Translations under genes and position numbers: made by a program
The notes under the pieces: model-generated
Told to the model about the DNA's origin: nothing
Seen by the model: only the letters and a program-made list of their open reading frames with translations
The model's database searches: none
DNA from: a virus
IMG/VR virus record: IMGVR_UViG_3300028654_000014
Coordinates: 18,222-82,221 of that record
Reading direction: 5' to 3' (one strand)
Length of the DNA: 64,000 bases
In this document: positions 2 to 61,918 of the stretch, piece by piece
How positions within the stretch are numbered: position 1 is the first letter of the stretch
Layout: every line of letters starts with the position of its first letter

Positions 2-103
2 ATGTATATTGAAAAGGAAGAATCATATTGGCATGTATGTGGTAATAATATAGATAATCATAAAGAAAATGGGAAAATAATTGATATATTAACTTATGAA
101 TGA
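2..103 (+). CDS. micro-ORF of the ILEYK family (ends ILTYE), possibly 5'-truncated by the window edge
   Basis: Manual translation MYIEKEESYWHVCGNNIDNHKENGKIIDILTYE*; its end overlaps the polymerase ATG at 96. Confidence 0.55.
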   Translation: MYIEKEESYWHVCGNNIDNHKENGKIIDILTYE

Positions 104-1583
104 AATATTATATGGTAAACAAGAATTACAAAAAATAGTATCAATAGAACCTTCAAATAGTTCTGTTGAAATTTTCATTCAAGATAATCAAGGAAATGTT
201 AAATCAGAATTTGTTGAAAACCGTTCATGGATTTTAAGCCATTTTCCTCTAAAAGACTTTAAAAAACTCCAAGGTAATCTTTATTATCAATATGGTAAAC
301 AATTTAGAGAAAGAAACGAATTTCAAAAAGCTCGAAGCTATTTAAAAAACTCAGACATATTTTCAATTTATGACCCAAAAGAATCTTTCATGGTTCTAAA
401 GGGTTATACTTATTTTAAAGGATTAAAACACCAAGATGTTACAATTCTTTCATTTGACATTGAAACTACAACAAAAGATTTAAATGATCAATCTAAACTT
501 CTACTAATATCCAATACATTTAGAAAAAACGGCATAATTACTAAAAAGCTATTCTCCTATGATGATTATAATGATGAAGGAGAAATGATTGAAGAATGGT
601 GCAAATGGGTTAGAAAAATGGACCCAAGCATTATAACAGGTCATTATATTTTAGTATTTGATTTGGATTATATTCAATTCATAGCTAATAAATATAATGT
701 TGCTTTAAAATTAGGCCGAGATGGTTCTAATATGAAAGTTAACAATTATGAATCACAATTTAGAAAAGATGGTTCACAATCTTATTCATATTACAAACAT
801 TACATTTATGGCCGAGAAATTATTGATGGATACTTTTTAGCTTTAAAATATGATATTGGTAGAAAATATGATAATTATAAGTTAAAGAATATAATCAAAC
901 AAGAAGGATTAGAAAAACAAGGAAGAGTATTTTATGATGCTTCAAAAATCAGAGAGAATTATAAGAATCCTACCGAATGGGCTAAAATAAAAGAATATTG
1001 TATAGATGATTCTGATGATTCATTAGCAATATTTGATTTAATGAGTCCAGCATTATTTTATTCGGCGCAAATGATTCCCAAACCCTTTCAATTAATATCA
1101 GAATGCGCAACAGGTTCACAAATTAATTCAATTATGATGAGAAGTTATTTACAAAATGGTCATAGTTTACCAAGAGCTTCTGATCCTTTTCCTTTTAAAG
1201 GTGCAATATCAATAGGAAATTTTGGAATCTATAGAAATGTATTTAAAGTAGACGTTTCAAGTCTATATCCTTCAATAATGATCCAATATGAAGTTTACGA
1301 TAAAGATAAAGATCCTAATGGAAATTTCTTATATTTGGTAAAAAATCTAACGGAACAAAGACTTATAAATAAAAAATTAGCAAAAGAAACTGGAGATAAT
1401 TATTATAAAGGATTAGAACAGAGCCAGAAAATTTTAGTGAATTCTGCTTACGGATTTTTAGCTGCGGCAGGTTTGATATTTAATTCTCCTATTAAAGCTG
1501 ATTTTATTACAGAAACTGGAAGAGATATATTAAAAAAATCTATTTTATGGGCAACAGGAAAAGAATATGACGAAAACAGTTGA
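96..1583 (+). CDS. family-B DNA polymerase, N-terminal part (3'-5' exonuclease plus palm motifs A and B)
   Basis: ExoI FDIET, ExoIII YCIDD, motif A DVSSLYPS, motif B KILVNSAYG; motif C is absent. Confidence 0.93.
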   Translation: MNEILYGKQELQKIVSIEPSNSSVEIFIQDNQGNVKSEFVENRSWILSHFPLKDFKKLQGNLYYQYGKQFRERNEFQKARSYLKNSDIFSIYDPKESFMVLKGYTYFKGLKHQDVTILSFDIETTTKDLNDQSKLLLISNTFRKNGIITKKLFSYDDYNDEGEMIEEWCKWVRKMDPSIITGHYILVFDLDYIQFIANKYNVALKLGRDGSNMKVNNYESQFRKDGSQSYSYYKHYIYGREIIDGYFLALKYDIGRKYDNYKLKNIIKQEGLEKQGRVFYDASKIRENYKNPTEWAKIKEYCIDDSDDSLAIFDLMSPALFYSAQMIPKPFQLISECATGSQINSIMMRSYLQNGHSLPRASDPFPFKGAISIGNFGIYRNVFKVDVSSLYPSIMIQYEVYDKDKDPNGNFLYLVKNLTEQRLINKKLAKETGDNYYKGLEQSQKILVNSAYGFLAAAGLIFNSPIKADFITETGRDILKKSILWATGKEYDENS

Positions 1584-2109
1584 TTTAATTGGTAAAAGAT
1601 TTGGAAGATGGTTAGTTTTAGAAATTTCAAACATGGGAAAAAATCCTAGAGTAAAAGTAATATGTGATTGTGGTACAGAAAAAATTATATTAAGTAAAAC
1701 TTTAGTAGCTAAAAAAGCTAAAAGTACATCATGTGGATGTTATCAAAGAGAAAGAGTAAAAGAATGTTTAGGAAAACCAAATGATGTATCAGCTTTAAAT
1801 CAATATTATTCAATTTATAAAACTTCAGCAAAACAAAGAAATCATAATTTTAATCTTACTAAATATGAATTCAAACAATTTATTTTTGAAAAATGTTATT
1901 ATTGTGAAAAAAATCCAGAACCTAGACTTATACATTCTAGAGGATTACTTTTAAATGTAAATGGAATAGATAGAGTTGATAATTCTAAAGGTTATTCTAT
2001 TGAAAATTGTGTAACTTGTTGTAAAGATTGTAATAATAAAAAATCAGATATAACTAAAAATATTATAATAAAAGCTTATAATTTTCTAATGGGGGATAAT
2101 AATGCATAA
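1567..2109 (+). CDS. free-standing HNH homing endonuclease interrupting the polymerase
   Basis: N-terminal DLIGKRFGRWLV..CDCG..SCGC module; CYYC and GIDRVDNSKGYSIENCVTCCKDCN HNH/Zn motif. Confidence 0.88.
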   Translation: MTKTVDLIGKRFGRWLVLEISNMGKNPRVKVICDCGTEKIILSKTLVAKKAKSTSCGCYQRERVKECLGKPNDVSALNQYYSIYKTSAKQRNHNFNLTKYEFKQFIFEKCYYCEKNPEPRLIHSRGLLLNVNGIDRVDNSKGYSIENCVTCCKDCNNKKSDITKNIIIKAYNFLMGDNNA

Positions 2110-2770
2110 TTTTAAGCTTGTAAACGCTGATACAGACAGTATTTCCTTTTCCAAGGGTGATGAGTCATTTATTGAAAAAAGTGAGCGTATAAGCCTTTTA
2201 AACGAGATTAATGACCTATTTCCTGAGAAGATCAAGTTCGAAGATGATGGATTCTATAAAACGATTATATGCCTGATGGCAAAGAATTATGTAATGGAAA
2301 AGGAAGATGGTACAGTAATTTATAAAGGTTCTGCTTTAAAAGATGCTAAAAAGGAACCAGCCCTTTATCAATTTATGAAAGATATAATAGGTTCAATTTT
2401 AAACAATAAAAACAACTATTTAGAGATTTATAATCAATATGTTAAAGAAATTAAGGATGTGAAGGATATAAAACGCTGGGCATCAAAAAAGACCATTACC
2501 AAAGCTGTTTTAAAAGCTGAAAGAACCAATGAAAAGAATATACTTGCAGCAATTTCTGAAATCGAGTATAATGAAGGTGATAAAATTTCATTGTATTATG
2601 ATGAGGAAGATGTTTTGAAATTAGCTGATAATTTTGATGGAAAATATTCAAAGACAAGACTTCTGCAAAAATTGTACAAAACAAGTGAAACTTTTGAATC
2701 GATTATTCCAAAGGAAACTTTTATGAACTATTCTTTGAAGAGAAATCAAAAGATATTGGAAGTTTTATGA
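2102..2770 (+). CDS. family-B DNA polymerase, C-terminal part (motif C and thumb)
   Basis: NADTDS catalytic motif C followed by AKNY and YKG motifs; own RBS GGGGA upstream. Confidence 0.9.
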   Translation: MHNFKLVNADTDSISFSKGDESFIEKSERISLLNEINDLFPEKIKFEDDGFYKTIICLMAKNYVMEKEDGTVIYKGSALKDAKKEPALYQFMKDIIGSILNNKNNYLEIYNQYVKEIKDVKDIKRWASKKTITKAVLKAERTNEKNILAAISEIEYNEGDKISLYYDEEDVLKLADNFDGKYSKTRLLQKLYKTSETFESIIPKETFMNYSLKRNQKILEVL

Positions 2771-3390
2771 TAAAAAAGAAACACACATTATACTATATGG
2801 TAGAATCATTCTTATATAATAGTGATTTTTTTGTAAATTATGATGATGGTGGATTTTTCTTACCCATTTCTGAAGATGATGATCTTATTAAAATTGATCT
2901 AGATGAAAATGATGTAAAAATATTGGAATATAAATGAAAAAGAAGAAATGGACTTTAATTTATGATAATAGACCTTCGGAATTATTAGTAGCTGTTGGAA
3001 TTAAACCTTCTGCTGATAGTTTATTTATTTCATATAGTTATAATGAAACAATATTTTTTGATGATGGATTATTAAAAATGAAACTTGGTAAATTAAAATC
3101 TGATGTTAAAATATTGGAATATAAATGATGGTATTATTTTATTATCCAAGATTATGGTTTGGAGATTTTCCAGTAGTTAATTATTGGCCAAAAGATTTAT
3201 ATTTAAAAACTGAAATATTAGCAGGTGAATTTATTATTTGTGAGTATGAATGATTTTATATAGTTGGTATTCAAAATCTTTTAATAAATGGTTCATACAA
3301 GATCCAATGATGAAATTATATTTCTATAAATATATAATTGAAAAAGAAACAGATTGGATAGATAGAAAAATAATATTGGAATATGAATGA
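2767..3390 (+). CDS. array of four coupled ILEYK-family micro-ORFs (2767-2937, 2934-3128, 3125-3253, 3250-3390)
   Basis: Ends ILEYK, ILEYK, ICEYE, ILEYE; every junction is an ATGA overlap. Confidence 0.75.
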
Positions 3391-4316
3391 TTAAAGAAAT
3401 AGTTAATATTTTAATAGCAGAGGGAGGCATGGGAGATTTAATTTGTTCATTAGTATCAGTAAATTACAATATAACTCATTTCCCAGACATTCAATTTCTT
3501 GTATGGGTTCCAAATTATTTATTAGATTTTGCAAAACATGTATTACCAAGAGGAACTTCTATTAGAAATTTTACAGAAGCTCAAGATAAATATAATCCAA
3601 ATTTACCAGGAGTTTCAACAAAATGGTCATCATTCCATACTCCAATGAGAACTCATCCTGTAGATTATTCATTTCATATGTTAAGCGATAAACATATTTA
3701 TAATATGAATGAAAAGAACTATTTACAAATAAATCCTGAAAAGATTAATATAAAGAGATTTTCATTGCCAGAAAAATATGTAGTAATTTGTTCAGCAGCG
3801 GCAGAAAAAGTTAAAGAAATGCCCATAAGTACAATGAATGATTTAATTGAATATATTATTAATAAAGAATATACACCAGTATTTTTAGGTAAAACTCTTG
3901 TAGAAACAGGAGTTAAAGGAATAGATATTAAAGCTAATCCTTTAAATATTGATTATAGTAAAGGGATTAATTTATTAGATAAAACAAGTTTATTAGAAGC
4001 GGCAAAAATAATGAGTGAAGCAAAATGTGTAATAGGAATGGATGGAGGATTAATTCATTTAGCAGGATGTACAGATGTTACAATAATTGCAGCTTATACT
4101 TTAGCCAGCCCCGAACATTTAGCTCCAATAAGAAATGGATCACAATCTTATAAATTCTTTCCAATAGAACCAGATCTAAACATTCCAAATAGATATTATC
4201 AAACCAATAATAATTTTAATTATAATGTTGATTATAGAACATTTCCAGGATGGGAAAAAGTTGTAGAAAATATTACAAGTGATAAATTTGTAAAAGTATT
4301 GGAAGAGATTTTATGA
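3387..4316 (+). CDS. GT9-like (ADP-heptose/LPS heptosyltransferase-like) glycosyltransferase
   Basis: GGMGDL near N-terminus; INLLDKTSLLEAAKIM...IGMDGGLIHLAG motif typical of GT9. Confidence 0.82.
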   Translation: MIKEIVNILIAEGGMGDLICSLVSVNYNITHFPDIQFLVWVPNYLLDFAKHVLPRGTSIRNFTEAQDKYNPNLPGVSTKWSSFHTPMRTHPVDYSFHMLSDKHIYNMNEKNYLQINPEKINIKRFSLPEKYVVICSAAAEKVKEMPISTMNDLIEYIINKEYTPVFLGKTLVETGVKGIDIKANPLNIDYSKGINLLDKTSLLEAAKIMSEAKCVIGMDGGLIHLAGCTDVTIIAAYTLASPEHLAPIRNGSQSYKFFPIEPDLNIPNRYYQTNNNFNYNVDYRTFPGWEKVVENITSDKFVKVLEEIL

Positions 4317-4769
4317 CCTTTTTATATTATATAAATGATGAATTATCTGAAAATCTAACTTCTAATGAGAATTTTTTTATTAATGATATAATTTATAAAG
4401 ATAATAAGATTATTAAAATATTGGAATACACATGAATTATTTATATATTGTTAAAGTTGATAATAAAAGAAATTCATTAAAAGATGCAATTTTTCAATAT
4501 TTTACTAAAGAACAATATAAATTTTGTAAATTTTATCCTGAAGATACTTTCATATTGGAATATGAATGATATTTTATTGGATTACAATTGTAATATTAAT
4601 TTTAATAGGAATAAGTGCAATAATACTTATAATAGATAATTTTGTAATTAATAGAAAAACTTATCTTGTATGGAATCATAAAAAGATGTCTTTAAGATAT
4701 ACACCTCCAGTAGAATGTGGCAAATATCAAATAAAAAGAGAAGAACAAATAATAATGAGTTACAAATGA
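4313..4769 (+). CDS. array of three coupled micro-ORFs (4313-4435, 4432-4569, 4566-4769)
   Basis: Ends ILEYT, ILEYE, IMSYK; ATGA overlaps; the third has an N-terminal TM helix. Confidence 0.72.
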
Positions 4770-5395
4770 AAACAGCAATATTTACAACTACTTATCTAGT
4801 CCCCCAAGAAAGATTTGATAAAACTGTCAAATTTCTTGATTATTATTCAAGAAAAACTAATTATGATATATACGTTTTAGATAATAATTCTCCATTAGAA
4901 AAAGCAATTGAATTACAACTATTATTTCCTCAAATCAAAATTATAAGATATGATGAACATTTTGATAGACCAAGCCATTTAGATTATAAATATCTTTGGA
5001 GAGCAGTTTTTGATCTTCAAAACTATTTTAATGAATATGAAAAGATAATTTATATGGATAATGACTTTTATATACTTTCTGATAAAATGTTCAATTATAT
5101 CAATGATTTAAAAGATTCATGGACCACTTTTTGGTGTAAAATGCATCAATTTCCAGAAACAGGATGCCATATAATTCTTAAAAATGATCCTAACTATACT
5201 AACTTTATTAAAGATTTAACTTTACAAAATTTTATAAACCTGTATAATAATAGTTGTATGGAAAATACTTTGCCCGTTTCAAAAATTGAGAAATCATTCA
5301 ATGGTGATAGATTTGGGGAATTAAAAGATCCTCCAAAATTAGATGGATTGGATTTTTGGGCGCAAGCGAAATTGGAGGATAGGATTGAACTTTAA
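4766..5395 (+). CDS. GT-A fold glycosyltransferase-like protein
   Basis: VLDNNS and YMDNDF (DxD) motifs; start at the ATGA overlap at 4766 preferred over 4715. Confidence 0.6.
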   Translation: MKTAIFTTTYLVPQERFDKTVKFLDYYSRKTNYDIYVLDNNSPLEKAIELQLLFPQIKIIRYDEHFDRPSHLDYKYLWRAVFDLQNYFNEYEKIIYMDNDFYILSDKMFNYINDLKDSWTTFWCKMHQFPETGCHIILKNDPNYTNFIKDLTLQNFINLYNNSCMENTLPVSKIEKSFNGDRFGELKDPPKLDGLDFWAQAKLEDRIEL

Positions 5396-5517
5396 TATTC
5401 TAGCTTATAGATTAAATCAACCTATTCATGGTAATATTCATGATCCTTTTTATTGGATTCCAACAGTTTATTCAGGATATGTAGAAATATTTAGATTAGT
5501 TGAATTTAGAGAATATA

Positions 5518-5789
5518 ATGACTAAATTATGGTATAATACAAGAAAAGTATGGAAACATATGCCATTCTCTTCAACAAGGAAAAATTATACTATACATTT
5601 CACAGGTAAGAAAAATATTATATCTGATAGAGAAATAATATATGAAGATGATATTTTAATAATGGAATATAAATGATATTAGTTTATTGGAGCGAAATAT
5701 ATGCAGATCCATTTAAATTATATCCAATAGAATATTATTGTAATATACCAGTTAGTAAAGTTCATATAAAAGTAATGGAGTATAAATGA
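5518..5789 (+). CDS. two coupled micro-ORFs (5518-5676, 5673-5789)
   Basis: Ends IMEYK and VMEYK; ATGA overlaps. Confidence 0.72.
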
Positions 5790-6400
5790 TTTGTATCATA
5801 CCTTGTGCCGGATTTGGAAAACGAATGGGAATGAAAAAGAACCAATCCAAAGAAATGCTCCCAGATACTGATTTTAAAAATGATCATATAATTGATTATA
5901 GTATAAATATTTGTAGAACATTAGAAATTGAACCAATAGTAGTTACAAGAAAAGAGAAGAAAGATTTAATTAATTATTTAAAAGAAAAGAAAGTTAAATA
6001 CATCATTTTTAATCCAAATGAACATAATGAATGGTATGATTCAGTTTTAGCTTCACAAGCTCATTGGGATGAAGATAATTTATTAATTCTACCAGATACA
6101 AGATTCTTACCAATATTTCCAACTATTTCTGATATTAAAAAAGGATTGGAATTGGGAAATGAAGCAGTATTTGCAGTTCACAAAGTTAATGACCCACAAA
6201 ATTGGGGAATAATTAAAGATTATTCTTTATTTGAAAAACCTGAAAATATGGAAGGTCCTCAAAGAGCTTGGGGATTAATAGGTTTTAAAAAATCTTATGG
6301 ATTTAATTTATTTAGTCGAATGAAGATGAAAAATCAAGAATTAGAACATGCAGGATTTGTATATTTAAATAGCTTTTTGGATATTACAAGAGGTAAATAA
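5786..6400 (+). CDS. sugar-phosphate nucleotidyltransferase (NTP_transferase family)
   Basis: IIPCAGFGKRM...SKEMLP N-terminal signature; LLILPD; VNDPQNWG. Confidence 0.8.
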   Translation: MICIIPCAGFGKRMGMKKNQSKEMLPDTDFKNDHIIDYSINICRTLEIEPIVVTRKEKKDLINYLKEKKVKYIIFNPNEHNEWYDSVLASQAHWDEDNLLILPDTRFLPIFPTISDIKKGLELGNEAVFAVHKVNDPQNWGIIKDYSLFEKPENMEGPQRAWGLIGFKKSYGFNLFSRMKMKNQELEHAGFVYLNSFLDITRGK

Positions 6401-7371
6401 TGGGAGTTTTTAAAGTAAAAAAGATTACCAATATTAATGATGTAAAAGTCAATGATGAACTTCCTGAATCAGATTTCGCATCAATGACCAGTGAAGGAAA
6501 TTTCGTACAACTTGAATATATTGATGATGAACATACAAAAGAACCTTATAAAGTCAAGCCAGGAATTTGGGCAGTACAAAAAGTAGGTATGAGTTTAAAA
6601 TTAGAAGCTACAAGCTTTGTAAGTGATAAAATATTAGATTCATTTGTAAGTACAAAGAATATTACTGATAAAATTGATTGCTTTTTCAATAAAATTCCAG
6701 TTTATAAGGAATTGGGATTTGAAGTGGCGAAAAGAGCAGCTTTATTATATGGTCCCGCAGGATGTGGAAAATCGACCAGCCTTGCATTAGTAGCAAACAA
6801 ATATACAGCAGATAATAAAACAGCAGTCATAATATGGCATACAGATAAATTTGAGTCATACCAAATTAAGGATTTTATCAAATCTTTTGAATATGATGGA
6901 GTTGAAAAGCTCATTTTGATTATAGAGGATGTTGGAGGAGCAGAAATTGAAGGTGCTCGAATGAAATCTGACAGTTCCCTACTTTCATTATTAGATAATC
7001 AAGAAAAAACCTTTAAGATTCCAGTATTTATACTCGCAACAACAAATTATCCTGAAAATTTCATGGGCAATCTTACAAACCGTCCTAATCGATTTGACGA
7101 TAAAATAGAAGTATCCTATCCAGAAGCAAAACAAAGAGAAGAATTATTATCATTCTTTTTAAAAGAAAGTCCTTCACAAGAAGCAAAAGATCTGATATTA
7201 TCTAATAAGACAAAGGAATTTTCAGCGGCTCATATAAGAGAGATAGTGATAAGGTCAAAAATATATGATAAATCAATTGAAGCTGTCATTACAGAAATGC
7301 ACAAAGAGATTGAGAAGTATAAGAAAGCCTTTGCAGAAGAACGAAAAATGGGATTCGAAATTGATGATTAA
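6400..7371 (+). CDS. AAA+ ATPase
   Basis: Walker A LLYGPAGCGKS, Walker B IIEDV, sensor ATTN, RPNRFD arginine finger. Confidence 0.88.
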   Translation: MGVFKVKKITNINDVKVNDELPESDFASMTSEGNFVQLEYIDDEHTKEPYKVKPGIWAVQKVGMSLKLEATSFVSDKILDSFVSTKNITDKIDCFFNKIPVYKELGFEVAKRAALLYGPAGCGKSTSLALVANKYTADNKTAVIIWHTDKFESYQIKDFIKSFEYDGVEKLILIIEDVGGAEIEGARMKSDSSLLSLLDNQEKTFKIPVFILATTNYPENFMGNLTNRPNRFDDKIEVSYPEAKQREELLSFFLKESPSQEAKDLILSNKTKEFSAAHIREIVIRSKIYDKSIEAVITEMHKEIEKYKKAFAEERKMGFEIDD

Positions 7372-7468
7372 TGGATATTATTGTTTTGATAGTGAACAAT
7401 TTCATTATTTTCAATCACATTCTTCTTGCAAATCTTGTAATTTTGTATTAGAATATATAAATGATTAA
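7364..7468 (+). CDS. micro-ORF of the ILEYK family (ends VLEYIND)
   Basis: MINGYYCFDSEQFHYFQSHSSCKSCNFVLEYIND*; overlaps the AAA stop. Confidence 0.55.
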   Translation: MINGYYCFDSEQFHYFQSHSSCKSCNFVLEYIND

Positions 7469-7489
7469 CTAAACAAAAGGGAGAAATAG

Positions 7490-8554
7490 ATGAAGCCAGG
7501 AAATATTAAAGATGTAATGGATTTAGCAAAAAGAGCACGAGAAAGAGGTCATAGATTTAATCCATGTTTTGTAAGTCCTCCAGGAGTTGGAAAATCAGAA
7601 ATCGTTCAACAATGGTGTAAAGAAAATGGTTACGATTTTATTGATATTAGATTAGCTTATAAAGAAGCTCCTGATATGATCGGATTTCCACAACCAAGAG
7701 AAGTTACCGATAAAAATGGTACAGTAAGACAAGTTTGTTTATATTTTACCCCAGAAATTTGGCCAACAGAAGGTAAGGGAGTTATTTTCTTAGATGAAAT
7801 TAACCGAGGTACAACTTCTGTTATGAATACTTGTATGCAACTTTTGACTGATAGAAAGATTGAAAAATACTCACTTCCTGAAGGATGGATAATTGCTGCC
7901 GCGATAAATCCTGAAAATGAACACAATGATGTAAATACAATGGATACAGCTTTAAAAGATCGTTTAGAAATCTTTGAAGTAAATTATGATAAGAAAACAT
8001 TTGTATCCTTTATGAAAGATTCAAGCTGGGATAAAAATATCGTTATGTTTGTAGAATCAAATATGTGGTCATATTCCAAACCAGAAGATGTTGGAGAAAC
8101 AGCGGGAAATAAATATCTATCCCCAAGAACTTTAAGCAAATTAAATGCAGCTTTAAAATCTGATATTCCAAAAGATATGGAATTAGATTTCTATGAAGGA
8201 ATTTTGGGTAAAAATGTCGGGAGAGCATTTTTCCAATTTATGAATGATGAACAACCAGTACTTTACAAAGATATTGTAAAGAATCCAGCTAAAGCATTTG
8301 AGAAGCTTAAAAGATTCAGTGATCCTGCAAAATACATGGCTGGACACATTTCTTTAACAATCAAAGATATTGTTGAAAATCATGATATTGATGATGAATT
8401 GTTAGTAAAAGTAATTTTAAACATTCCAGCTGATAGTGGACCATCACTTGTAAGTGAATTGGAATTTAAAAGAAAAGATCCAACTCTCTTAGATCGTTTG
8501 TTAAAAAATTATCCTGCTGTAAAGAAATACTTTAAGGATGTTTTGAATAAATAA
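7490..8554 (+). CDS. MoxR-like AAA+ ATPase
   Basis: SPPGVGKS, FLDEINR, AAAINP, DTALKDR; followed by a vWA gene. Confidence 0.85.
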   Translation: MKPGNIKDVMDLAKRARERGHRFNPCFVSPPGVGKSEIVQQWCKENGYDFIDIRLAYKEAPDMIGFPQPREVTDKNGTVRQVCLYFTPEIWPTEGKGVIFLDEINRGTTSVMNTCMQLLTDRKIEKYSLPEGWIIAAAINPENEHNDVNTMDTALKDRLEIFEVNYDKKTFVSFMKDSSWDKNIVMFVESNMWSYSKPEDVGETAGNKYLSPRTLSKLNAALKSDIPKDMELDFYEGILGKNVGRAFFQFMNDEQPVLYKDIVKNPAKAFEKLKRFSDPAKYMAGHISLTIKDIVENHDIDDELLVKVILNIPADSGPSLVSELEFKRKDPTLLDRLLKNYPAVKKYFKDVLNK

Positions 8555-8598
8555 TGATTTTCATAGTGTATTTAAATACGAGAGGGAGATTTTAAGAT

Positions 8599-9900
8599 AT
8601 GACTAAAACAGAGGAACTTTTACAGTCATGTATTTATAAGATAGTAAGGGATAATGCTTTTATTGGTGGTTTGTTACAAGAATTAACTTTTAAATTTAGT
8701 AATGAAGTACCAACAGCTGCGATTGGTTTTGATAAAAAGACCCAAAAGTATGAATTATACTTCAATCTTGACTTTTTTCAGAAAATGGAGAAGGAACAAA
8801 GAATTGCAGTATTAATGCATGAAATCCTTCATTTTCTTCATAAACATCTATTTCGATGGATGCAAATGAAAGTTGATGAAAAGGACCGATTTTTATGGAA
8901 CATTGCAGCAGACATGGCCATAAACCAATACATTGAAAACCTCCCAAAAGGCTCTATAAGCATAGATAATTACAAAGATGCTAAAGGACAGCCTTTTCCA
9001 AAATTCCAGCCCATGGAAGCCTATTACGATCTAATACAACAGAATAGAGAAGGAGATAAGACCAAAGGACAGGATTTAAAAGATCCTAATGGTGAACCTT
9101 CAAAAGATAAGAACGGAAATTCTATTGTTGATCCTAATGGAAAGCCTTATGATTCCAAAGGAACGGGCAATGAGGGATCAAATAAGGAAGAATTGGACAA
9201 ATATACAGCAATGGATGAGCATAAATGGGAAGATCTTTCAGATGAAGAAAAAGAAAGAATGGCTAGAGAAGCTGAAAAGCTTATTAAACGAACCATTGAA
9301 AAAACAGCTTATAGTCATTCAAATATTCCAGGATATGTTGAAGATTTCTTAAAAGATTTAAGTGCATATTTAAGGAAATTGAATTATAAAGCTATTTTAA
9401 GAAATGCAATAAAGAAAACAGTAATGAGTCAAGATAGAGAAAATTCATGGAAGAAACCTAATAAAAGATTTGGAGAAGTAGCCCCTGGAACTTCTTTAAG
9501 TAGAACTCCAAGAATTAATATGTATGTTGATACTTCAGGATCAATTTCTTATCAAGAACTTACAGAATTTTTAAGTATTATTGATGGATTTTTAAAAGCC
9601 GGAAATAAAGATTGTAGATTAGTTTTATGGCATACAAATCCTTATTATAATAAGAAATATAAACTTAATAGTAAATTAGATTCAAAAGTAGTTCAAGCAG
9701 GAGGAACAGATCCTCAACCTACTTTAGAATTGATTCAAAAAACTAGCCCCGATCTTTCTATTATTCTAACAGATGGATTTTATGATAAATCTAATATTAA
9801 ATTACATAGTGATGTAATATGGATTATTAGTAAAACTGGAAATAAAGATCATCCAAATTCTCATATTGGGAAAACGATTCTTTTAGAAGGAATTAAGTGA
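8599..9900 (+). CDS. metallopeptidase-like plus vWA domain protein (DUF2201 type)
   Basis: HEILH zinc motif, WNIAADMAIN, MIDAS DTSGS, GGT, ILTDG. Confidence 0.85.
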   Translation: MTKTEELLQSCIYKIVRDNAFIGGLLQELTFKFSNEVPTAAIGFDKKTQKYELYFNLDFFQKMEKEQRIAVLMHEILHFLHKHLFRWMQMKVDEKDRFLWNIAADMAINQYIENLPKGSISIDNYKDAKGQPFPKFQPMEAYYDLIQQNREGDKTKGQDLKDPNGEPSKDKNGNSIVDPNGKPYDSKGTGNEGSNKEELDKYTAMDEHKWEDLSDEEKERMAREAEKLIKRTIEKTAYSHSNIPGYVEDFLKDLSAYLRKLNYKAILRNAIKKTVMSQDRENSWKKPNKRFGEVAPGTSLSRTPRINMYVDTSGSISYQELTEFLSIIDGFLKAGNKDCRLVLWHTNPYYNKKYKLNSKLDSKVVQAGGTDPQPTLELIQKTSPDLSIILTDGFYDKSNIKLHSDVIWIISKTGNKDHPNSHIGKTILLEGIK

Positions 9901-10087
9901 AAAAAAGTTTAATATGGATTCCTAAATTAGGAATTAGAAGATGTATAAGAGGTGATATGTTTAAATACGAAACTCTTATATTGGATTATGAATGAAAAAT
10001 TTAATTTGGTTGAATAATTTAAAATGTTTTATTTGGATTAAAAGAATAGGTGGTACACATGAAACTTTTATATTGGAATATAAATGA
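9897..10087 (+). CDS. two paralogous coupled micro-ORFs (9897-9995, 9992-10087)
   Basis: MKKSLIWIPKL..ETLILDYE and MKNLIWLNNL..ETFILEYK. Confidence 0.72.
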
Positions 10088-10410
10088 TAGTAATTTTAAA
10101 AGATGAAGTAGTAGGAAAATCTTTACGTATTCCCATAATGATTGGAATTTCGGTATCAGTAAAATTTACATTAACTTCAATAGCTAACTCTCAAATTATT
10201 GATTGTGAATTTTTAAGAGGAAAAGAATATAAAGCAAAATTAAAAAAAGATCCATTAATAGGAGATGAATTTTATTTTATAAAACCAGAAAATTCTTCTA
10301 AAATATTTAAATTTGATAAATATGTTATTGATAAACACTTTTATATTAAAACAGAAAAACAAATACATCAAGAGAAATTTGATAAGAAAATGGATAAGAT
10401 ACTGAAATGA
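10084..10410 (+). CDS. hypothetical protein with C-terminal HxExFxxKMDK helix
   Basis: Coupled ORF ending HQEKFDKKMDKILK. Confidence 0.6.
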   Translation: MIVILKDEVVGKSLRIPIMIGISVSVKFTLTSIANSQIIDCEFLRGKEYKAKLKKDPLIGDEFYFIKPENSSKIFKFDKYVIDKHFYIKTEKQIHQEKFDKKMDKILK

Positions 10411-10604
10411 TTCAATTATATTATATAGATAATACATGGTATGAAAATACTTACGAATTCATTGATTTTTCTAATGGTAGGAATTTATTGAACAAAAGTA
10501 AAAAAGAGATGTCCAGATTTGTTTATAAAGATTATAACGATACTGTTAGAGTTAATAGTGATTATATGTATAAATTAAAGCTTATTTTTGAAATTAGTGC
10601 TTGA
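10407..10604 (+). CDS. hypothetical small protein
   Basis: ATGA-coupled ORF with aromatic N-terminus like the micro-ORFs. Confidence 0.55.
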   Translation: MIQLYYIDNTWYENTYEFIDFSNGRNLLNKSKKEMSRFVYKDYNDTVRVNSDYMYKLKLIFEISA

Positions 10605-10629
10605 TTTTTGATTAAAGATTTGATATAAT
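10601..10629 (+). promoter_or_regulatory. sigma70-type promoter
   Basis: TTGATT-17 bp-TATAAT with extended TG; AAGGAG RBS before 10659. Confidence 0.7.
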
Positions 10630-10658
10630 GAATATTATTAACTAATAAGGAGATAATA

Positions 10659-10958
10659 ATGGAAACAGTAACATTTCACGATTCAAAGAATAATATCACT
10701 TTTACGATTAAGAGTGAATTTGTAGAAACTTGTCCCGAATTTAAAACCACTCCCACGAAAGAATTAGTAGAAAAGCACAATATCTTTAAATTCTTTCACA
10801 ATCCTAATGGTCCATCAGTAACTGACCATAAAACCAACACTATTACATATTTTTTAAATGGTCATTTGGTTGAAGGTGAAGAATTGGAAAAGATTAAACA
10901 TCGTGAACAATTCAATGGTAAAATGGATAAAGTTTTAGCAGATGAATCAGCTTCATAA
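10659..10958 (+). CDS. hypothetical protein
   Basis: Strong RBS; HNPNGP..YFLNG motif; ends HREQFNGKMDKVL. Confidence 0.7.
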   Translation: METVTFHDSKNNITFTIKSEFVETCPEFKTTPTKELVEKHNIFKFFHNPNGPSVTDHKTNTITYFLNGHLVEGEELEKIKHREQFNGKMDKVLADESAS

Positions 10959-10961
10959 AAT

Positions 10962-11117
10962 ATGAATAGATTATTTATTGTAAATGAACCATTAACTTAT
11001 AAATGGCATTTAGAAAATAATCATGGAGTTCATTATTTCAGTAATGATAAAGTATTAGTTAAGTATGCTGTAGTTATTGATTATAGTAAAGGAATATATA
11101 TTTGTATTTATGATTGA
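10962..11117 (+). CDS. micro-ORF, divergent ILEYK-family member (ends ICIYD)
   Basis: Manual translation, 51 aa; overlaps next ATG at 11110. Confidence 0.5.
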   Translation: MNRLFIVNEPLTYKWHLENNHGVHYFSNDKVLVKYAVVIDYSKGIYICIYD

Positions 11118-11331
11118 TCTAGATGAGTATAAAAATAAGAAGAAGCTCAAAGATATTGTAAAAGATCTTGAAGATTGTAAAATTAAACTTACAGGATCTT
11201 TAAATCTTTTAGAAGTTCATAAGAAATATATTCCTATAATGGAATCGATAAGTGTTTTACATAATAGTCGAACTCTTATAGAAATTCATTTAAACAAGTA
11301 CAAGAATTTACTAGAGAAAGAATTAGAATGA
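11110..11331 (+). CDS. hypothetical protein
   Basis: ORF MIDLDEYKNKKK, coupled to neighbours. Confidence 0.55.
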   Translation: MIDLDEYKNKKKLKDIVKDLEDCKIKLTGSLNLLEVHKKYIPIMESISVLHNSRTLIEIHLNKYKNLLEKELE

Positions 11332-11675
11332 ATTGGAAAAGCTTTTATAAAAGAATTCCTAAACAAGTTAAAGTAGGTCAAAATACCTATGAGGTTGTTT
11401 GGAACAAAGGTTTTTCCCGCGATAAAAAACAATTAGGGGAAACAAGATTCTTTAACGAGAATCCGCAAATTGTTATTAATTTAAATCAACCGATAGAAGA
11501 AGCTGTTCATACTTATTTTCATGAACTTTTACACATATTTAGTGAAGAATATGGTGCAAGATTGACAGAAAATCAAGTAATAGTTCTAGAGCAGGGACTA
11601 AAGGACATTCTAGCCCCTAATAATATATTTACCAAAGGAGTCAAAAGTGATACGACCAAACCAAGAAAACGGTGA
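11328..11675 (+). CDS. small zincin-like metallopeptidase
   Basis: YFHELLH HExxH motif. Confidence 0.6.
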   Translation: MNWKSFYKRIPKQVKVGQNTYEVVWNKGFSRDKKQLGETRFFNENPQIVINLNQPIEEAVHTYFHELLHIFSEEYGARLTENQVIVLEQGLKDILAPNNIFTKGVKSDTTKPRKR

Positions 11676-12639
11676 GATATTAAAGGCTTACGTCCAACTA
11701 GTTCAAACAACAGGAAGGTTTCCAAATTGTAGGGAAGTAGAAAGATTAATCACAAGTGATAGGCAAGTTAGAAAACATTTTGGAGGATATACAGCTTTAA
11801 AAGAAACAGTAATTAAATTTCATCCAGAACTGTTAGAATTTGATCAAACACATGAAAATGAAGCTAAAGTATTAGTATTTGATATTGAAACTGCTCCTAT
11901 AACAGCTCACGTTTGGGGATTATGGGAAAATAATGTATCATTGAATCAAATAGTTAAAGATTGGCATGTTTTAAGCTGGAGCGCAAAATGGTTAGGAAAT
12001 CAAGAGATACTATACAAAGATCAAAGAAAAAATAAGAATGTAGAAGATGATACTGAAATATTAAAAGGTATCTGGAAATTATTAGATGAAGCAGATGTTG
12101 TAATTACCCAAAATGGTAAGAGTTTTGATGTTAAGAAACTTAATGCTCGATTTGCTTTAAAAGGAATGAAACCGCCAAGTAGTTTTAGACACATTGATAT
12201 TTGTCGCGTGGCTAAAAAACATTTTGGATTTTCAAGTCATAAATTAGAATATATGACCGATAAATTATGTAAGAAATATAAGAAGTTAAAGCATAAGAAA
12301 TTCCAAGGCCATGAATTATGGACCCAATGTTTAGCTGGTAATTTAAAAGCTTGGAAAGAGATGGAAAAGTATAATAAATATGATGTATTATCATTAGAAG
12401 AATTGTATTATATTTTAATTCCCTGGGACAATACCATTAACTTTGATATTTATACAAATAAAGAAGAAAATATTTGTAAATGTGGAAGTAAGAAATTTGT
12501 TAAAAAAGGATTTTATTACACTGCTTCTTCAAAATATCAGAGATATCAATGTATTAAATGTTATGCAGAATCAAGGGATAATATTAATTTATTACCAAGT
12601 CATAAGAAGGATTCTTTGAAACGTGGCATTACAAGGTAA
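11647..12639 (+). CDS. RNase H-fold (DEDD) 3'-5' exonuclease with C-terminal Zn ribbon
   Basis: VFDIETAP, QNGKSFD, HIDIC, YNKYDV; CKCGS...CIKC. Confidence 0.85.
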   Translation: MIRPNQENGEILKAYVQLVQTTGRFPNCREVERLITSDRQVRKHFGGYTALKETVIKFHPELLEFDQTHENEAKVLVFDIETAPITAHVWGLWENNVSLNQIVKDWHVLSWSAKWLGNQEILYKDQRKNKNVEDDTEILKGIWKLLDEADVVITQNGKSFDVKKLNARFALKGMKPPSSFRHIDICRVAKKHFGFSSHKLEYMTDKLCKKYKKLKHKKFQGHELWTQCLAGNLKAWKEMEKYNKYDVLSLEELYYILIPWDNTINFDIYTNKEENICKCGSKKFVKKGFYYTASSKYQRYQCIKCYAESRDNINLLPSHKKDSLKRGITR

Positions 12640-12640
12640 A

Positions 12641-13148
12641 ATGATATTAACTTATATAACTTCTGTATATTATATAGGTAATATTCATCATATTGAATTT
12701 TGGTACGGTCCAGTAAATAATTATTTATCCAATAATTATGGTGATGAAGAAAAGATAATATTGTATTATGAATAAAATGTACTATATTTTTGATACAGGA
12801 ATGTATCATATTGGAATTCAAACTGCATATAGTATAAGGTATTTTGATTATTCTCATAATGATTGGACATCTATTATTAATAGAAAGATACATTACAAAG
12901 ATATTAGATATGTATTAAATTATGAATAAATTAATATTAGTACTTTCATTTTTATTATTACTTGTAACTATTTTGTATAGAAGATGAATAAACTTTTATT
13001 AGATGGTACTGGTATTTTTGGTAAAACTAAATATTGGATTATGAAAGATGATAGATTATATGAATCAATAAGTATGCGTTTATTGGAAAACACAGTTAAT
13101 GATTTAAATATTAAAAATGATAAAGTTATATTAGAATATGAGGATTAA
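12641..13148 (+). CDS. array of four coupled micro-ORFs (12641-12775, 12768-12929, 12922-12987, 12984-13148)
   Basis: Ends ILYYE, VLNYE, ILYRR (21-aa hydrophobic peptide), ILEYED; each overlaps the next start. Confidence 0.68.
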
Positions 13149-14045
13149 GTGAAAGAATTTGATTTAGAAGATTATGAAGAAGCTTCGGAACCAACAGAAG
13201 AAATTGTATATAAACCAATGCAATATATTACAATGCCTAAATGTTTTCAAGATTCTATAGGATTGCCAGGAATTCCATTAGGACATTCAACAATGCTTTA
13301 TGGACTTTCAGATTCTGGAAAAACTGATGTCTTGTTAAAGATAGCAAGAGAAGCTACAAAACAAGAAATTCTACCAATAATTGTAATTACTGAAAATAAA
13401 CTTGATAAAGATAGATTAGATTCCATGGGTTTGGAACATAAAAAGAATTGTATCATAAAAGAAGATCTTACAACATTAGAAGATGTTTATGATTATATTT
13501 CAATGAAAGTAACTGATATAAAGAATAATAAGCTTAAAATGAATACATTGATTCTATGGGATTCAGTTGCCGGAACTCCTTCAAAAGATTCCTTTGAAAT
13601 TGCAAAAGATGGTAAAATAACTAAAAAGTATGGTCCACAAAAGAATGCTCAAACAATTGGATATTTTAATCCTATTATTATGAAACTTGTTACAAGTACA
13701 AGACAAATGGATTGTGATTATTCTTTAGGACTTTTTATGTTAAATCAAGCTTATAAGAATATGCCCGAATTTCCAGGAGCACCAGTAACAACGGTTCCAA
13801 ATGGCGGGGAAAAGATTTGGTTTCCAATTTCTTTAGCCATTGAGATTAAAGAAGGAAAACGCATTAAAATCACTAAGGATGGAAGAGATTTAGAAGTTGG
13901 ACTTGTGAGTAAACTTAAAGTTAAAAAGAATCATATAACGGGTATAAACTCATCTGGAGAGATTGTACTGGCAGGTTCTGAAATGTTTGAAAATGATGAT
14001 AAGCTTATAAAGGATTTTAAAGAGAGGATTAAAAATGAAAGCTAA
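13149..14045 (+). CDS. RecA/UvsX-like recombinase
   Basis: Walker A YGLSDSGKT, Walker B LWDSV, LNQ, GG and KVKKN motifs. Confidence 0.8.
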   Translation: MKEFDLEDYEEASEPTEEIVYKPMQYITMPKCFQDSIGLPGIPLGHSTMLYGLSDSGKTDVLLKIAREATKQEILPIIVITENKLDKDRLDSMGLEHKKNCIIKEDLTTLEDVYDYISMKVTDIKNNKLKMNTLILWDSVAGTPSKDSFEIAKDGKITKKYGPQKNAQTIGYFNPIIMKLVTSTRQMDCDYSLGLFMLNQAYKNMPEFPGAPVTTVPNGGEKIWFPISLAIEIKEGKRIKITKDGRDLEVGLVSKLKVKKNHITGINSSGEIVLAGSEMFENDDKLIKDFKERIKNES

Positions 14046-14271
14046 GTATTTAATACCATTTTTATTACTAATTTCAATAGGTTGTATAAATAAACATGAA
14101 CAATCTAGACCTAAATATCATATTGGACAAATTGTAGGTAATGGATATTGTAAAGGAATGATAGCATCTGTTATATATTTAATGGATTACTATGAATATT
14201 ATATATTAGATGCAGAATGTGGAAATAGAATATATAATCATGTTATTTTAAGAGAAGATGAGATAAAATGA
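14035..14271 (+). CDS. putative lipoprotein
   Basis: Hydrophobic N-terminus ending ISIGC (lipobox-like). Confidence 0.5.
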   Translation: MKAKYLIPFLLLISIGCINKHEQSRPKYHIGQIVGNGYCKGMIASVIYLMDYYEYYILDAECGNRIYNHVILREDEIK

Positions 14272-14413
14272 AGCTTAAATTATATATTTTAGTTGACAAA
14301 GATAAAAGAATTTGTTATACTAGTGATAATAGAAAACAAGTTCAATATTTTAAAAAATCTATTGAAGCAAATAATAAAAACCTTAAAATTGTAAAACTAA
14401 CAGGAGAAATAAA

Positions 14414-14605
14414 ATGACCAAATACGCCGTATCAGAAGAGTCCCTCAATTCTATTCTAAACTATCTAGCATCAAGACCTTTTGCTGAAGTTTATAAAATT
14501 GTACCACTTCTTCAAGTTCCAAATGTAGAACTATTGGCACAAGAAGCTCAAGCAGAAGCATCTGAAGTATCTGAAGTATTGGATAGTCAAGAATCAGCAT
14601 CATAA
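14414..14605 (+). CDS. hypothetical protein
   Basis: AGGAG RBS; ILNYLASRPFAEV motif. Confidence 0.6.
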   Translation: MTKYAVSEESLNSILNYLASRPFAEVYKIVPLLQVPNVELLAQEAQAEASEVSEVLDSQESAS

Positions 14606-14621
14606 TGATCGGAGGGGATAA

Positions 14622-16011: not shown

Positions 16012-16095
16012 TCCAATCTTTTGGTCAAGTCTTATTTCTATTCCTAGCATTTTTAATGATTATATTCATTCCCGATTCATTTAAAAGGACAACAG

Positions 16096-16673: not shown

Positions 16674-16836
16674 TATATCATATAGATTTAATTCAGTAAT
16701 AGGATTATTAGAAGCTGGTATTATAACACATAAAGAAGCTATAGAACTTTTAGATTTTAGTAATGTATATTATATTAATAATAAATTAATGTGTTTTAGA
16801 AAATTTGATATAATAGAAGTATTAAGATATGAGTAA
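16666..16836 (+). CDS. micro-ORF of the ILEYK family (ends VLRYE)
   Basis: Overlaps both neighbours. Confidence 0.6.
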   Translation: MSNISYRFNSVIGLLEAGIITHKEAIELLDFSNVYYINNKLMCFRKFDIIEVLRYE

Positions 16837-17907: not shown

Positions 17908-18601
17908 ATGAAAGATCCTTTAAAATTATTTAAAAGACTTGGAATAAAGTATTATGATATAATGGATTTTTTCAAAGAACCTTTCACATATAAACCATAT
18001 TATAATTCAAATATATTAAAATATTATAAAAAGAAAATATTGGTATATAAATGAAAGGTGCTTTCATAGAAGCTGCTAAATATTTAATGGGATTTTATAA
18101 TTTTTATCCATGGGAAATTAAAAGATTTAGTAAATTAAATTGGCTAATATATGGTGATATAAAAATATTGAGGTATAAATAATGGCTGCAACATTTATGG
18201 GAATTTCAGATATGAGTAAAATTTTTAAAGAATTATATGCAGATTATTTTTCACCATGGAGATATGATGGAAAGAAATTAACTTATAATGAAGGTCATCT
18301 TTGGACTTCACCCAAAGTTGCTCCTCCTAAAAAAGATTTGATAGTATTGGAATATAAATAATGGGAAACTCAAATTATTATGTATATGATTCACCACACT
18401 GGGTTTCAGAAAATAATATACTCACTTATATAAGCTTTTATATTCCTTATGAAACTAAACAAACGGAAATATTAAGATATGAATGAATATCAACAAGAAA
18501 CTGATTGGATCTATGAAAAATGTATATGGTTAAGTAATGGATTTTATTGGTATAATTCAAAATATGAAATAATTCAAATATTTCAATTGACAAATGAATA
18601 A
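17908..18601 (+). CDS. array of five coupled micro-ORFs (17908-18054, 18051-18182, 18182-18361, 18361-18486, 18479-18601)
   Basis: First four end ILVYK, ILRYK, VLEYK, ILRYE; ATGA/TAATG overlaps. Confidence 0.72.
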
Positions 18602-20381: not shown

Positions 20382-20825
20382 ATTAGTAATTGGTACTAAT
20401 CCTTTTGTTAGAAGTTATTGTTTTATAATAGAAGATGAATATAGTTTTAGAAATTTATTACCTTCTCGATTAGTTTTGGAATATGAATAACAAATTATAC
20501 TACGATAATCAAAAAAATGATCCAGATAAATTTGTAATATTCTTTCAAGAATCGAATTTAAAATATTATAATACTAGAGTTGACGATTGGGTTTATTCTG
20601 GAATTCATGTAATAAAAGATATAAATAAATTAGTTAGAATAATGGAATATGAACAAACTATATTATAATACAAATCCTGATTTTGGATGGTTTATTAAAT
20701 TTAACAATACAGATGGTTTACATTTTAATAAATTAGAAATCTTTCAAGAAGTTGAAAATGGACAAAAATCTACAGATATACTGATAATGGAATATGAAGA
20801 AGATAATAACAGAACTAACGGATGA
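20365..20825 (+). CDS. three coupled micro-ORFs (20365-20490, 20483-20668, 20649-20825)
   Basis: Motifs VLEYE*, IMEYE-QTIL*, IMEYE-EDNNRTNG*. Confidence 0.68.
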
Positions 20826-61157: not shown

Positions 61158-61554
61158 TTTAATCACACTAGATCAATATTCAATGGGAAGAGATAAATTA
61201 TATCCAGATGAATGGACACAAGATGTTCAAAACAATGCTATAAGATTATTAAAGATTGTCAATGCATTTTTAAATGAGTTGGGAATTAAAGAAGCTATTG
61301 TAAGTAGTGGATTTAGACCCGCAGCTATTAATGGTAAAATAACCAACGCGGCAAAGAAATCTTATCATATGATTGGATTAGCAGTTGATATAAAAGATAA
61401 TGATAATCAAGACTTAGCTAATTTAATAGCTTCAAATCCTGATCTTTTAAGAAAATATAATTTATGGTTAGAAAGTCCGGCAGCAACAAAAGGATGGGCA
61501 CACATTGATCTTGGATCTAGAATGGATCGTCCTTCGAGAGTTTTTAATCCTTAA
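61150..61554 (+). CDS. peptidase M15-family endolysin
   Basis: SSGFR, SYHMIGLAVD, WAHID zinc-binding motifs. Confidence 0.85.
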   Translation: MNDLITLDQYSMGRDKLYPDEWTQDVQNNAIRLLKIVNAFLNELGIKEAIVSSGFRPAAINGKITNAAKKSYHMIGLAVDIKDNDNQDLANLIASNPDLLRKYNLWLESPAATKGWAHIDLGSRMDRPSRVFNP

Positions 61555-61918
61555 ACATATTCGCAAATAATTGTATATTTTTTATGCCATTCCTTATTAC
61601 ATTGTTTAATAGTTGAATATAGATAAGGATATATATTATCATTTCCTTCAAATTTAACTAAACACATTTTTGTTCTAAATATATTCACAAACTAAAACAT
61701 CTCCCTTAAAATTAATATTCCATCCTACAATCCATTCTTTGGTGTAATAATAAAATTTAGTATCTCTCACTTTATCATTATCAAATGATTTAATAACATA
61801 TAAATAATTATTCATATTCACAAATAAATCTTTCAGTTTTCATTAAAGGAATAGCTTCTATTGTTTCCAATATATAATAATCAAAGCGTTTAGAAAGAGA
61901 ATAATATATTAATATCAT
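61551..61918 (-). CDS. array of three coupled micro-ORFs (61808-61918, 61675-61815, 61551-61688)
   Basis: Ends ICEYE, VCEYI, ICEYV on the - strand. Confidence 0.7.

Follow-up and report, generated by a model that had tools for sequence, protein, structure and literature searches.

Integrons carry attC sites, which are imperfect inverted repeats of 57-141 bp (R''-L''...L'-R') able to fold as hairpins; the RegA protein of phage T4 binds AU-rich sequences around start codons; and clamp-binding C-terminal tails are present on the DNA polymerase, gp33 and gp55 of T4 and RB69. In T4-type phages, recombination between promoter early stem-loop (PeSL) sequences shuffles ORFans (Arbiol et al. 2010, PMC2839356; PMC4122927), and translational coupling at ATGA or TGATG overlaps between genes, with variable aid from an intragenic Shine-Dalgarno (SD) sequence, is established (PMC6728339). 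These systems are compared here with a recurring 18-mer, ATATTGGAATATRAATGA, found at gene junctions in a 64,000-nucleotide stretch of DNA from a soil phage (the window), which corresponds to bases 18222-82221 of the 82,221-bp IMG/VR record IMGVR_UViG_3300028654_000014, estimated to be 96% complete and present in public runs that are rhizosphere metagenomes. A first-pass annotation of the window had proposed that the 18-mer might be a recombination or coupling site. Our analysis indicates that it is probably a coding tail and coupling junction shaped by three overlapping constraints, not a DNA element in its own right, and that recombination at it is a by-product. Positions below are those of the window unless the genome is named.

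At no more than one mismatch, the 18-mer was found in eight copies in the window, all on the + strand, compared to 0.03 expected, and none of 100 shuffled sequences reached eight; these are the same eight positions that the first-pass annotation had reported. The whole record contains nine copies, all forward, and a reversed control pattern gave none. When up to four mismatches were allowed, 23 matches were found on the + strand and three on the - strand, with 21 of the 23 in the early arm, between 1 and 21 kb of the window. The early arm comprises the first ~40 kb of the record, with 26% GC and ~109 tightly packed + strand open-reading frames (ORFs), and the 18-mer is its top direct-repeat family; the remainder of the record is a - strand structural arm. 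In every one of the eight copies, as had been described, the element fuses a stop, a start and a GGA: TGA (bases 16-18) closes one ORF, ATG (bases 15-17) opens the next, and GGA lies 6 nt upstream of that ATG. The eight copies are as follows, the first coordinate of each downstream ORF being that of its ATG.

2920..2937, + strand: exact 18-mer; tail KILEYK-stop of ORF 2767-2937, ATG opens ORF 2934-3128
3111..3128, + strand: exact 18-mer; tail KILEYK-stop of ORF 2934-3128, ATG opens ORF 3125-3253
3373..3390, + strand: exact 18-mer; tail IILEYE-stop of ORF 3250-3390, ATG opens the GT9 glycosyltransferase gene 3387-4316
4552..4569, + strand: exact 18-mer; tail FILEYE-stop of ORF 4432-4569, ATG opens ORF 4566-4769
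5659..5676, + strand: 18-mer with one mismatch; tail LIMEYK-stop of ORF 5518-5676, ATG opens ORF 5673-5789
9978..9995, + strand: 18-mer with one mismatch; tail ILDYE-stop of the GTG-start ORF 9897-9995, ATG opens ORF 9992-10087
10070..10087, + strand: exact 18-mer; tail FILEYK-stop of ORF 9992-10087, ATG opens ORF 10084-10410
18037..18054, + strand: 18-mer with one mismatch; tail KILVYK-stop of ORF 17908-18054, ATG opens ORF 18051-18182

Read in frame, the 18-mer is I-L-E-Y-K/E-stop, and a list of the C-termini of all ORFs showed this to be the commonest form of a broader tail, [IVL][ILMC]-x-Y-[EDK]-stop, which in its strict form ends 35 of 240 + strand ORFs compared to one of 273 - strand ORFs. 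The + strand carriers are small (31-69 residues), and three - strand micro-ORFs at 61551-61918 that end in ICEY[VIE] variants bring the family to ~38. Outside the tail, the micro-ORFs share only a short aromatic head, M-x-x-[LF]-x-Y; their bodies are unrelated or saturated, the best BLASTP match between bodies having 28% identity (E = 4e-5) and mid-region nucleotide identity being 0.52-0.55 compared to 0.51 ± 0.08 for shuffled sequence. The tail thus occupies the extreme C-terminus of unrelated bodies, with the stop directly after it in 35 ORFs, as in a peptide-tag family, while two degenerate copies, at 20639 and 20784, are exceptions that read beyond the motif. Substitutions within the tail retain the type of residue and not the bases, with I, V or L at position -5 (ATA, ATT, GTA, GTT or TTA) and L, M or C at position -4 (TTG, TTA, CTT, ATG, TGT or TGC), and the Tyr is invariant, spelled TAT 13 times and TAC four times in tails whose third Tyr base is not fixed by the ATG (background TAC 13%).

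Conservation of the peptide and conservation of the DNA were told apart by codon choice. Among tail positions with the same residue, the fraction with the same codon was 0.679 compared to 0.636 ± 0.042 expected from the codon usage of the arm (P = 0.16), a value far below the ~1.0 that a DNA-level site would give, and in the junctions with 4- or 1-nt overlaps described below it was 0.683 compared to 0.68 (P = 0.49) once the Leu position was left out. In this 26%-GC genome, GAA, TAT and AAA account for 81-90% of the codons in their respective families, and ILEYK and ILEYE are therefore spelled nearly alike each time. Nucleotide conservation in excess of codon-level expectation, which the first-pass annotation had suggested looking for, was seen only in the use of TTG for Leu; its proposal of a site acting at the DNA level fails on its own terms, with synonymous sites that vary both among the paralogs and between the orthologs of two related phages.

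The choice of TTG is accounted for by the geometry of the junctions. The next gene's start is overlapped by 33 of the 35 tails, 16 of them by 8 nt (-8), 14 by 4 nt (-4) and three by 1 nt (-1); the -4 and -1 overlaps (17 tails) read ATGA and TAATG, and in the -8 class the ATG falls within the Tyr-Glu/Asp codons TAT-GAx. It is the stop and not the next ATG that sets the place of the tail: the string ATATT precedes the ATG by 14 nt at -4 junctions but by 10 nt at -8 junctions. TTG encodes Leu at 11 of 12 -4/-1 junctions, compared to 9.2% of Leu codons in the early arm (p = 4e-11), but at only two of 12 junctions of the -8 class (p = 0.30; Fisher test between classes, p = 6e-4). At the -4/-1 junctions TTG-GAA creates an SD-like GGA 6 nt upstream of the next ATG, whereas a GG within the tail would sit 2 nt from the ATG in the -8 class. 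An SD-like triplet, defined as GGA, GAG, AGG or GGT at -14 to -5 from the next ATG, was present in 16 of 17 -4/-1 junctions, as is typical of coupled pairs, compared to a background of 23% (p = 1e-9); it was present in three of 16 -8 junctions, which is the background level, and in 22 of 29 -4/-1 junctions that carry no tail. Since the TTG bias is confined to the -4/-1 class, TTG-GAA appears to serve as the tail's ribosome-binding site where the spacing makes it usable, and because the same peptide occurs with and without the SD requirement, the two geometries act as a natural control.

The coupling half of the first-pass proposal therefore stands as a prediction: the stop/start overlap that marks a coupled gene pair is present in all eight 18-mers together with an SD-like GGA at a working distance, and the sole codon choice that departs from genome usage is the one that makes this GGA, only where the ATG is suitably placed. 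Fifteen or 16 genes, including that of the DNA polymerase, have their ATG 8 nt ahead of the point where the preceding ORF ends (for example at 96, 12768, 16829 and 20483); lacking an SD-like signal, these would have to depend on reinitiation after termination 5 nt downstream of their ATG. Looser copies of the 18-mer, tails of the -8 class, and the other features that bear on the junctions are given below.

4418..4435, + strand: looser copy; tail KILEYT-stop with Tyr spelled TAC, -4 overlap
5772..5789, + strand: looser copy; tail KVMEYK-stop (GTA ATG GAG), -4 overlap, precedes the NTP-transferase gene 5786-6400
18165..18182, + strand: looser copy; tail KILRYK-stop (TTG AGG), -1 overlap (TAATG)
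18344..18361, + strand: looser copy; tail IVLEYK-stop, -1 overlap
86..103, + strand: tail of -8 geometry, DILTYE-stop; the polymerase ATG (96) lies inside TAT-GAA, no GGA
12758..12775, + strand: tail of -8 geometry, IILYYE-stop
16819..16836, + strand: tail of -8 geometry, EVLRYE-stop (TTA AGA)
20473..20490, + strand: tail of -8 geometry, LVLEYE-stop; ATG opens ORF 20483-20668
20639..20656, + strand: degenerate copy; IMEYE, then four further codons before the stop; ATG 20649 opens the next ORF
20784, + strand: degenerate copy similar to that at 20639; the reading frame continues past the motif
2753..2770, + strand: end of the C-terminal half of the polymerase, KILEVL-stop; -4 overlap with the first micro-ORF; a tail ancestral to the polymerase clade
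4296..4316, + strand: end of the GT9 gene, KVLEEIL-stop; -4 overlap with micro-ORF 4313-4435
61551..61918, - strand: three micro-ORFs of the tail family, ending IICEYV, LVCEYI and FICEYE, where the related phages L087 and L099 have arrays
13149..14045, + strand: UvsX/RecA-like recombinase with a general homologous-recombination function, the RecA-like gene named in the first-pass annotation

Two further descriptions in that annotation were borne out. The motif near 20483 and 20649, with its stop moved downstream, was found at 20473, 20639 and 20784, the frame running on at the last two. The genes directly upstream of the arrays, for the polymerase and GT9, do end in DNA related to the motif; however, the polymerase clade carries a K(L/I)LExL tail throughout, including in fused homologs of many phages and in phages without the motif, and GT9-like neighbors in relatives end in similar helices, so these ends are not scars of cassette insertion.

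Relatives of the phage extend the distinction between peptide and DNA. Beyond this phage, the exact 18-mer was matched in 19 viral contigs and in more than 119 metagenome contigs as single-copy chance matches, and among the matches listed only L099 has several copies on one contig; a second variant pattern scanned in viral contigs gave no further relatives. L099 and L087, found via the exact-motif scan, are closer relatives (portal 85% and terminase 74% amino acid identity to the window phage) that carry 8-10 micro-ORFs of 30-42 residues ending [IV]LEY[KEQN] upstream of the terminase. Their structural genes are identical to each other, while the array segment has a synonymous divergence (dS) of 0.35-0.85, and micro-ORF ratios of nonsynonymous to synonymous divergence (dN/dS) are 0.10, 0.16, 0.27 and 0.65; judged by these ratios, the micro-ORFs of L087 and L099 are real genes under purifying selection. 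Their orthologous tails differ synonymously (TAC/TAT, GAG/GAA), with Ile spelled ATA three times and ATT four times and Val GTT once. The Leu codon ends in G at seven of seven -4 junctions and is TTA in the lone tail without an overlap; as Leu ends in G only at -4 junctions, the SD rule is repeated independently. The ICEY trio on the - strand of the window is syntenic with the ILEY arrays of L087 and L099, after a conserved 'MESNLR.CK' protein.

More distant relatives keep tails of other kinds. Neither the 18-mer nor the tail was found at 57 polymerase-related loci (43-60% identity), among which only L009 and L017 have strong tail families; among portal relatives, L265 and L087/L099 have them. 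Lineage-specific tails are thus recurrent but sporadic across the group. In L009 (IMGVR_UViG_3300028581_000020, 369-19182), 18 ORFs end E[VI]KDLL[KAS] at every junction spacing, the tail preceded by a conserved helix-like K-x2-E-[IV]-x2; its codons are free (same-codon fraction 0.44 compared to 0.43 expected), and its tailed ORFs gave no match in PHROGs or Pfam. L017 has small early ORFs with the tails MEELLK and ILEL[IV]. In L265 (IMGVR_UViG_3300015195_000051, 3153-7078; portal 78%), seven ORFs, or eight when a looser variant is counted in, end [IL]F[IV][WYF]Ex, the same chemical pattern as the window tail in very different DNA. The tails of L009, L017 and L265 sit on ORFs with unrelated bodies. 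Residues are thus kept while synonymous sites vary in the paralogs of the window, in L087/L099, in L009 and in L265, which is the signature of a shared peptide. A second tail type was also seen in the phage itself, ...KMD-x-[LI]L-x on mid-sized proteins (window 10084-10410 and 16377-16673; genome 10588-11073 and 17341-17760). L017 has matching tails, KM[DE]ELLK, and L009 and L014 have similar ones; this second type may be the older and more widely shared tag.

From these observations, the 18-mer would be explained by three constraints acting on the same bases. At the protein level, ~38 micro-ORFs keep a tail of the form hydrophobic-hydrophobic-x-Tyr-Glu/Asp/Lys. At the level of initiation, Leu as TTG (or Met as ATG) followed by GAA, GAG or AGG places an SD-like GGA, GAG or AGG ~6 nt before the ATG of the -4/-1 junctions. 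The ATGA or TAATG overlap fixes the last codon as NNA and would permit termination-reinitiation coupling. Ribosomes would couple at the tail junctions, the tail itself would act as a docking or targeting peptide for a common partner, and homologous recombination by the UvsX-like recombinase and endonuclease VII would occasionally use the junction, deleting or duplicating whole units as a side effect.

Several observations weigh against this reading of the 18-mer as a coding tail and coupling junction. An AlphaFold2 model of micro-ORF 2934-3125, built with a paralog alignment, had a predicted local distance difference test (pLDDT) score of 49, with no secondary structure and no confident fold, and no sliding clamp or other partner for the tail was identified in this phage. 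The Ile codon at position -5 is ATA 19 times out of 25 (background 0.39-0.40, p = 2e-4), a bias that is not explained by an SD sequence and that is missing in the relatives; it may reflect shared descent of sub-families, the tails not being independent. L099 has one additional 33-residue micro-ORF compared to L087, and this 98-nt difference is flanked on both sides by TTGGAATAYAAATGA, the 15-nt core of the motif, so that both breakpoints fall inside the motif, the pattern that would be expected of a deletion between direct repeats. In one population contig (run X2), position 17255 is joined to 18163, and the 907 nt left out between them take in a GIY-YIG homing endonuclease gene and the greater part of two micro-ORFs. 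The joint falls at a 7-nt microhomology, AAATATT; the right copy of this heptamer forms the 5′ start of a tag, and the heptamer occurs 29 times in 20 kb. Finally, two adjacent pairs of ORFs (genome 17955/18142 and window 2767/2934) are nearly the same at head and tail around saturated middles, which suggests that they were duplicated recently or that the junction blocks underwent local gene conversion.

The last three of these observations bear on an alternative that we consider unlikely, namely that the junction block of tail, overlap and next head is maintained as portable homology for general recombination, as a coding analogue of the PeSLs of T4-type phages or of lambdoid 'linker' sequences. 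The motif-bounded indel of one whole unit and the two ORF pairs with near-identical ends and diverged middles are in its favor, as are the UvsX-like recombinase and endonuclease VII encoded by the phage, the placement of the arrays in variable regions between core genes with unit numbers that differ among relatives, and the precedent of ORFan shuffling by PeSL recombination in T4-type phages (PMC2839356). The motif, however, shows no conservation of its synonymous sites beyond codon usage, these sites change between orthologs, and relatives keep a peptide tail in quite different DNA. Any deletion of a whole unit is necessarily flanked by tags, so that one indel cannot demonstrate selection, and in this one pair of genomes one of three indels is bounded by the motif; a second begins right after a tag stop and the third is unrelated, leaving one of these two outside the tags. 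A replacement of 716 by 87 nt between L087 and L099 lies away from the tags, as do the borders of the diverged patch (~3578 and ~4793). The most diverged micro-ORF has a dS (0.66) equal to that of its neighbors, indicating that the divergence of its middle arose on the spot and not through a swap. L099 also has an inserted gene for a GIY-YIG homing endonuclease (reverse strand, 4087-4755) that is missing from L087, to which it is otherwise nearly identical; the insertion lies 6 nt past the stop of the last tagged micro-ORF, and so only abuts the tag.

Population contigs are near-clonal short pieces, too thin as a test either way; one of their 18 listed loose ends lies in a tag junction, and of four joints, three have short sides (21-37 nt) and lie away from the tags. 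Contigs of two runs (X3 and X9) join 3874, in GT9, back to 2763, in the polymerase tail motif, through 12 filler bases; in these contigs the first array may be tandemly duplicated or otherwise rearranged, and translation across the joint in the GT9 frame would end in ...KEYT-stop. Homology-driven events at the repeat would on this evidence be occasional, with no sign of a site kept for that purpose. The suggestion of the first-pass annotation that microhomology lets units move without breaking coupling is supported by one clean case, the 98-nt indel, which reads as a passive consequence of the repeat and not as a selected function. With the repeat as homology for the loss of this unit, arrays can vary in length while the chain of translation would stay intact. 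It is doubtful that the tail-overlap-head block is kept even partly so that recombination can add, delete and exchange micro-ORF units in register, as a coding counterpart of PeSLs; if this were true, it would imply a rapid turnover of the repertoire of tail-tagged micro-proteins.

There is a smaller chance that the motif is purely a translation signal, consisting of SD, spacer, start and stop, with the peptide tail a meaningless by-product of the frame. This would account for the GGA placed 6 nt before the ATG in all eight 18-mers, for TTG being chosen against the codon bias and for the overlap of 33 of 35 tails with the next start. It would not account for the 16 tails of the -8 class, in which hydrophobic-hydrophobic-x-Tyr is kept, SD-like triplets are at background and the distance from the tail DNA to the ATG differs by 4 nt, nor for tails without any overlapping start, namely those at window 12929 and genome 219 and the KILEYN tail of L087. 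The Tyr is invariant although TAC is tolerated, junctions of the ATGA type without the tag use unrelated sequences with GGAG or AGGA, and the relatives conserve other tails at any junction spacing.

We give very little credence to the motif as an operator in the RNA through which a repressor like T4 RegA would control the translation of early genes globally. An AU-rich conserved sequence does overlap many early start codons, but the block is anchored to the upstream stop and not to the ATG, as seen in the 4-nt shift between the classes; its synonymous sites vary, and most early genes are without the motif. Least tenable is an integron-like site, an analogue of attC for a dedicated recombinase, which had been offered in the first-pass annotation and is close to refuted: the layout is cassette-like, with many small promoterless ORFs in the same orientation that each end in one short sequence, but no tyrosine or serine recombinase (Phage_integrase, PF00589; Resolvase, PF00239) was matched in the 82-kb record, whereas control genomes were matched, in agreement with the earlier remark that the window has a RecA-like gene and no integrase; the junctions have no attC-like imperfect inverted repeats, the 18-nt motif containing only a 5+5 nt palindrome (ATATT/AATAT around GG); synonymous sites are variable; and the motif is multi-copy in only two related contigs among the matches listed. 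Promoters and terminators were likewise not found in the motif, with 153 promoter-like sites compared to 139 ± 11 in shuffled sequence and four terminator-like sites compared to 4.5.

Searches with the micro-ORFs returned little beyond the phage itself. No match was found in PHROGs or Pfam; among 5.8 billion proteins, a word-based search recovered the query alone, and the nine proteins that a profile search retrieved from 1.84 billion representatives have the lengths of the phage's own micro-ORFs, none of them being clearly foreign. The ESM Atlas gave no usable match and a cluster look-up no sequence variants. GIY-YIG domains have an 'F-x-F-x-ILE' strand, and the homing endonuclease encoded at 17230-17874 (phrog_314, E = 2e-33) carries a tail-like FKFEVLEYC (residues 58-66; FEVLEY at 60-65), with no significant similarity. 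An origin of the micro-ORFs as truncated GIY-YIG N-terminal halves was not supported, as hhalign matched six columns only (E = 0.23) and local alignments compared to shuffles gave a mean z of 0.4 and a maximum of 3.0.

The early arm otherwise encodes a family-B DNA polymerase split by an HNH ORF, GT9 and other sugar-related genes, ATPases, a primase-helicase, a ribonucleotide reductase, a dUTPase, the UvsX-like recombinase, endonuclease VII, and HNH and GIY-YIG homing endonucleases. The polymerase (96-2770) consists of parts of 495 and 222 residues, both overlapped by the free-standing HNH ORF 1567-2109, and its relatives come split (~500 residues) or fused (~715 residues); the nearest are 65-69% identical, and contigs with 100% identity occur in other assemblies. 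A perfect sigma-70 consensus at 18587-18615 (TTGACA, 17 nt, TG-TATAAT) lies directly before the gene 18625-18906 and is the sole 12/12 match within 20 kb. A nucleotide search of cultured phages gave a short HNH match only, and a single-protein scan with GT9 gave no matches.

A repeated DNA word at gene junctions that looked like part of a mobile element thus resolves into a conserved C-terminal peptide, codon usage that is extremely biased, a putative ribosome-binding site within the coding sequence and the overlap of stop and start. With this the case for a new recombination system falls away and a sharper question is left, which is why ~38 tiny predicted early proteins have a five-residue tail in common and why dozens of those in some relatives end in tails specific to their lineage. 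It also provides a worked example of how nucleotide-level and peptide-level conservation can be told apart in an AT-rich genome.

Compared to the systems introduced above, the arrays resemble integron cassettes in being made up of small promoterless ORFs of one direction, each followed by a recurring sequence, but this phage has no IntI-type recombinase, attC hairpin architecture, attI or Pc, and the sequence that recurs here is part of the ORFs, with its conservation at the peptide level. With the clamp-binding tails of T4 and RB69 they share the conservation of a few C-terminal residues over unrelated bodies, and the phage's own family-B polymerase ends in the related KILEVL (K(L/I)LExL in its clade); the difference is that no sliding clamp or partner was identified here, and no described counterpart was found for ~38 carriers of such small size. 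The likeness to the PeSL cassettes of T4-type phages lies in a short motif repeated between small ORFans in variable regions of a phage with its own recombination system, and in at least one indel between close relatives that ends in the motif. PeSLs, however, are non-coding and consist of an early promoter and a stem-loop terminator, whereas this motif is coding, has such signals at background and is not conserved at synonymous sites. The junctions are built like ordinary coupled overlapping gene pairs (PMC6728339), with the same -4/-1 overlap types, long one-directional gene chains and an SD-like purine triplet 5-9 nt before the downstream ATG, within the upstream coding sequence. The locus departs from such pairs in having 16 further junctions that use a -8 overlap (ATG inside TAT-GAx) with SD-like triplets at background, and in the single spelling shared by ~17 junctions, which is shared because the upstream proteins also share their C-terminal peptide.

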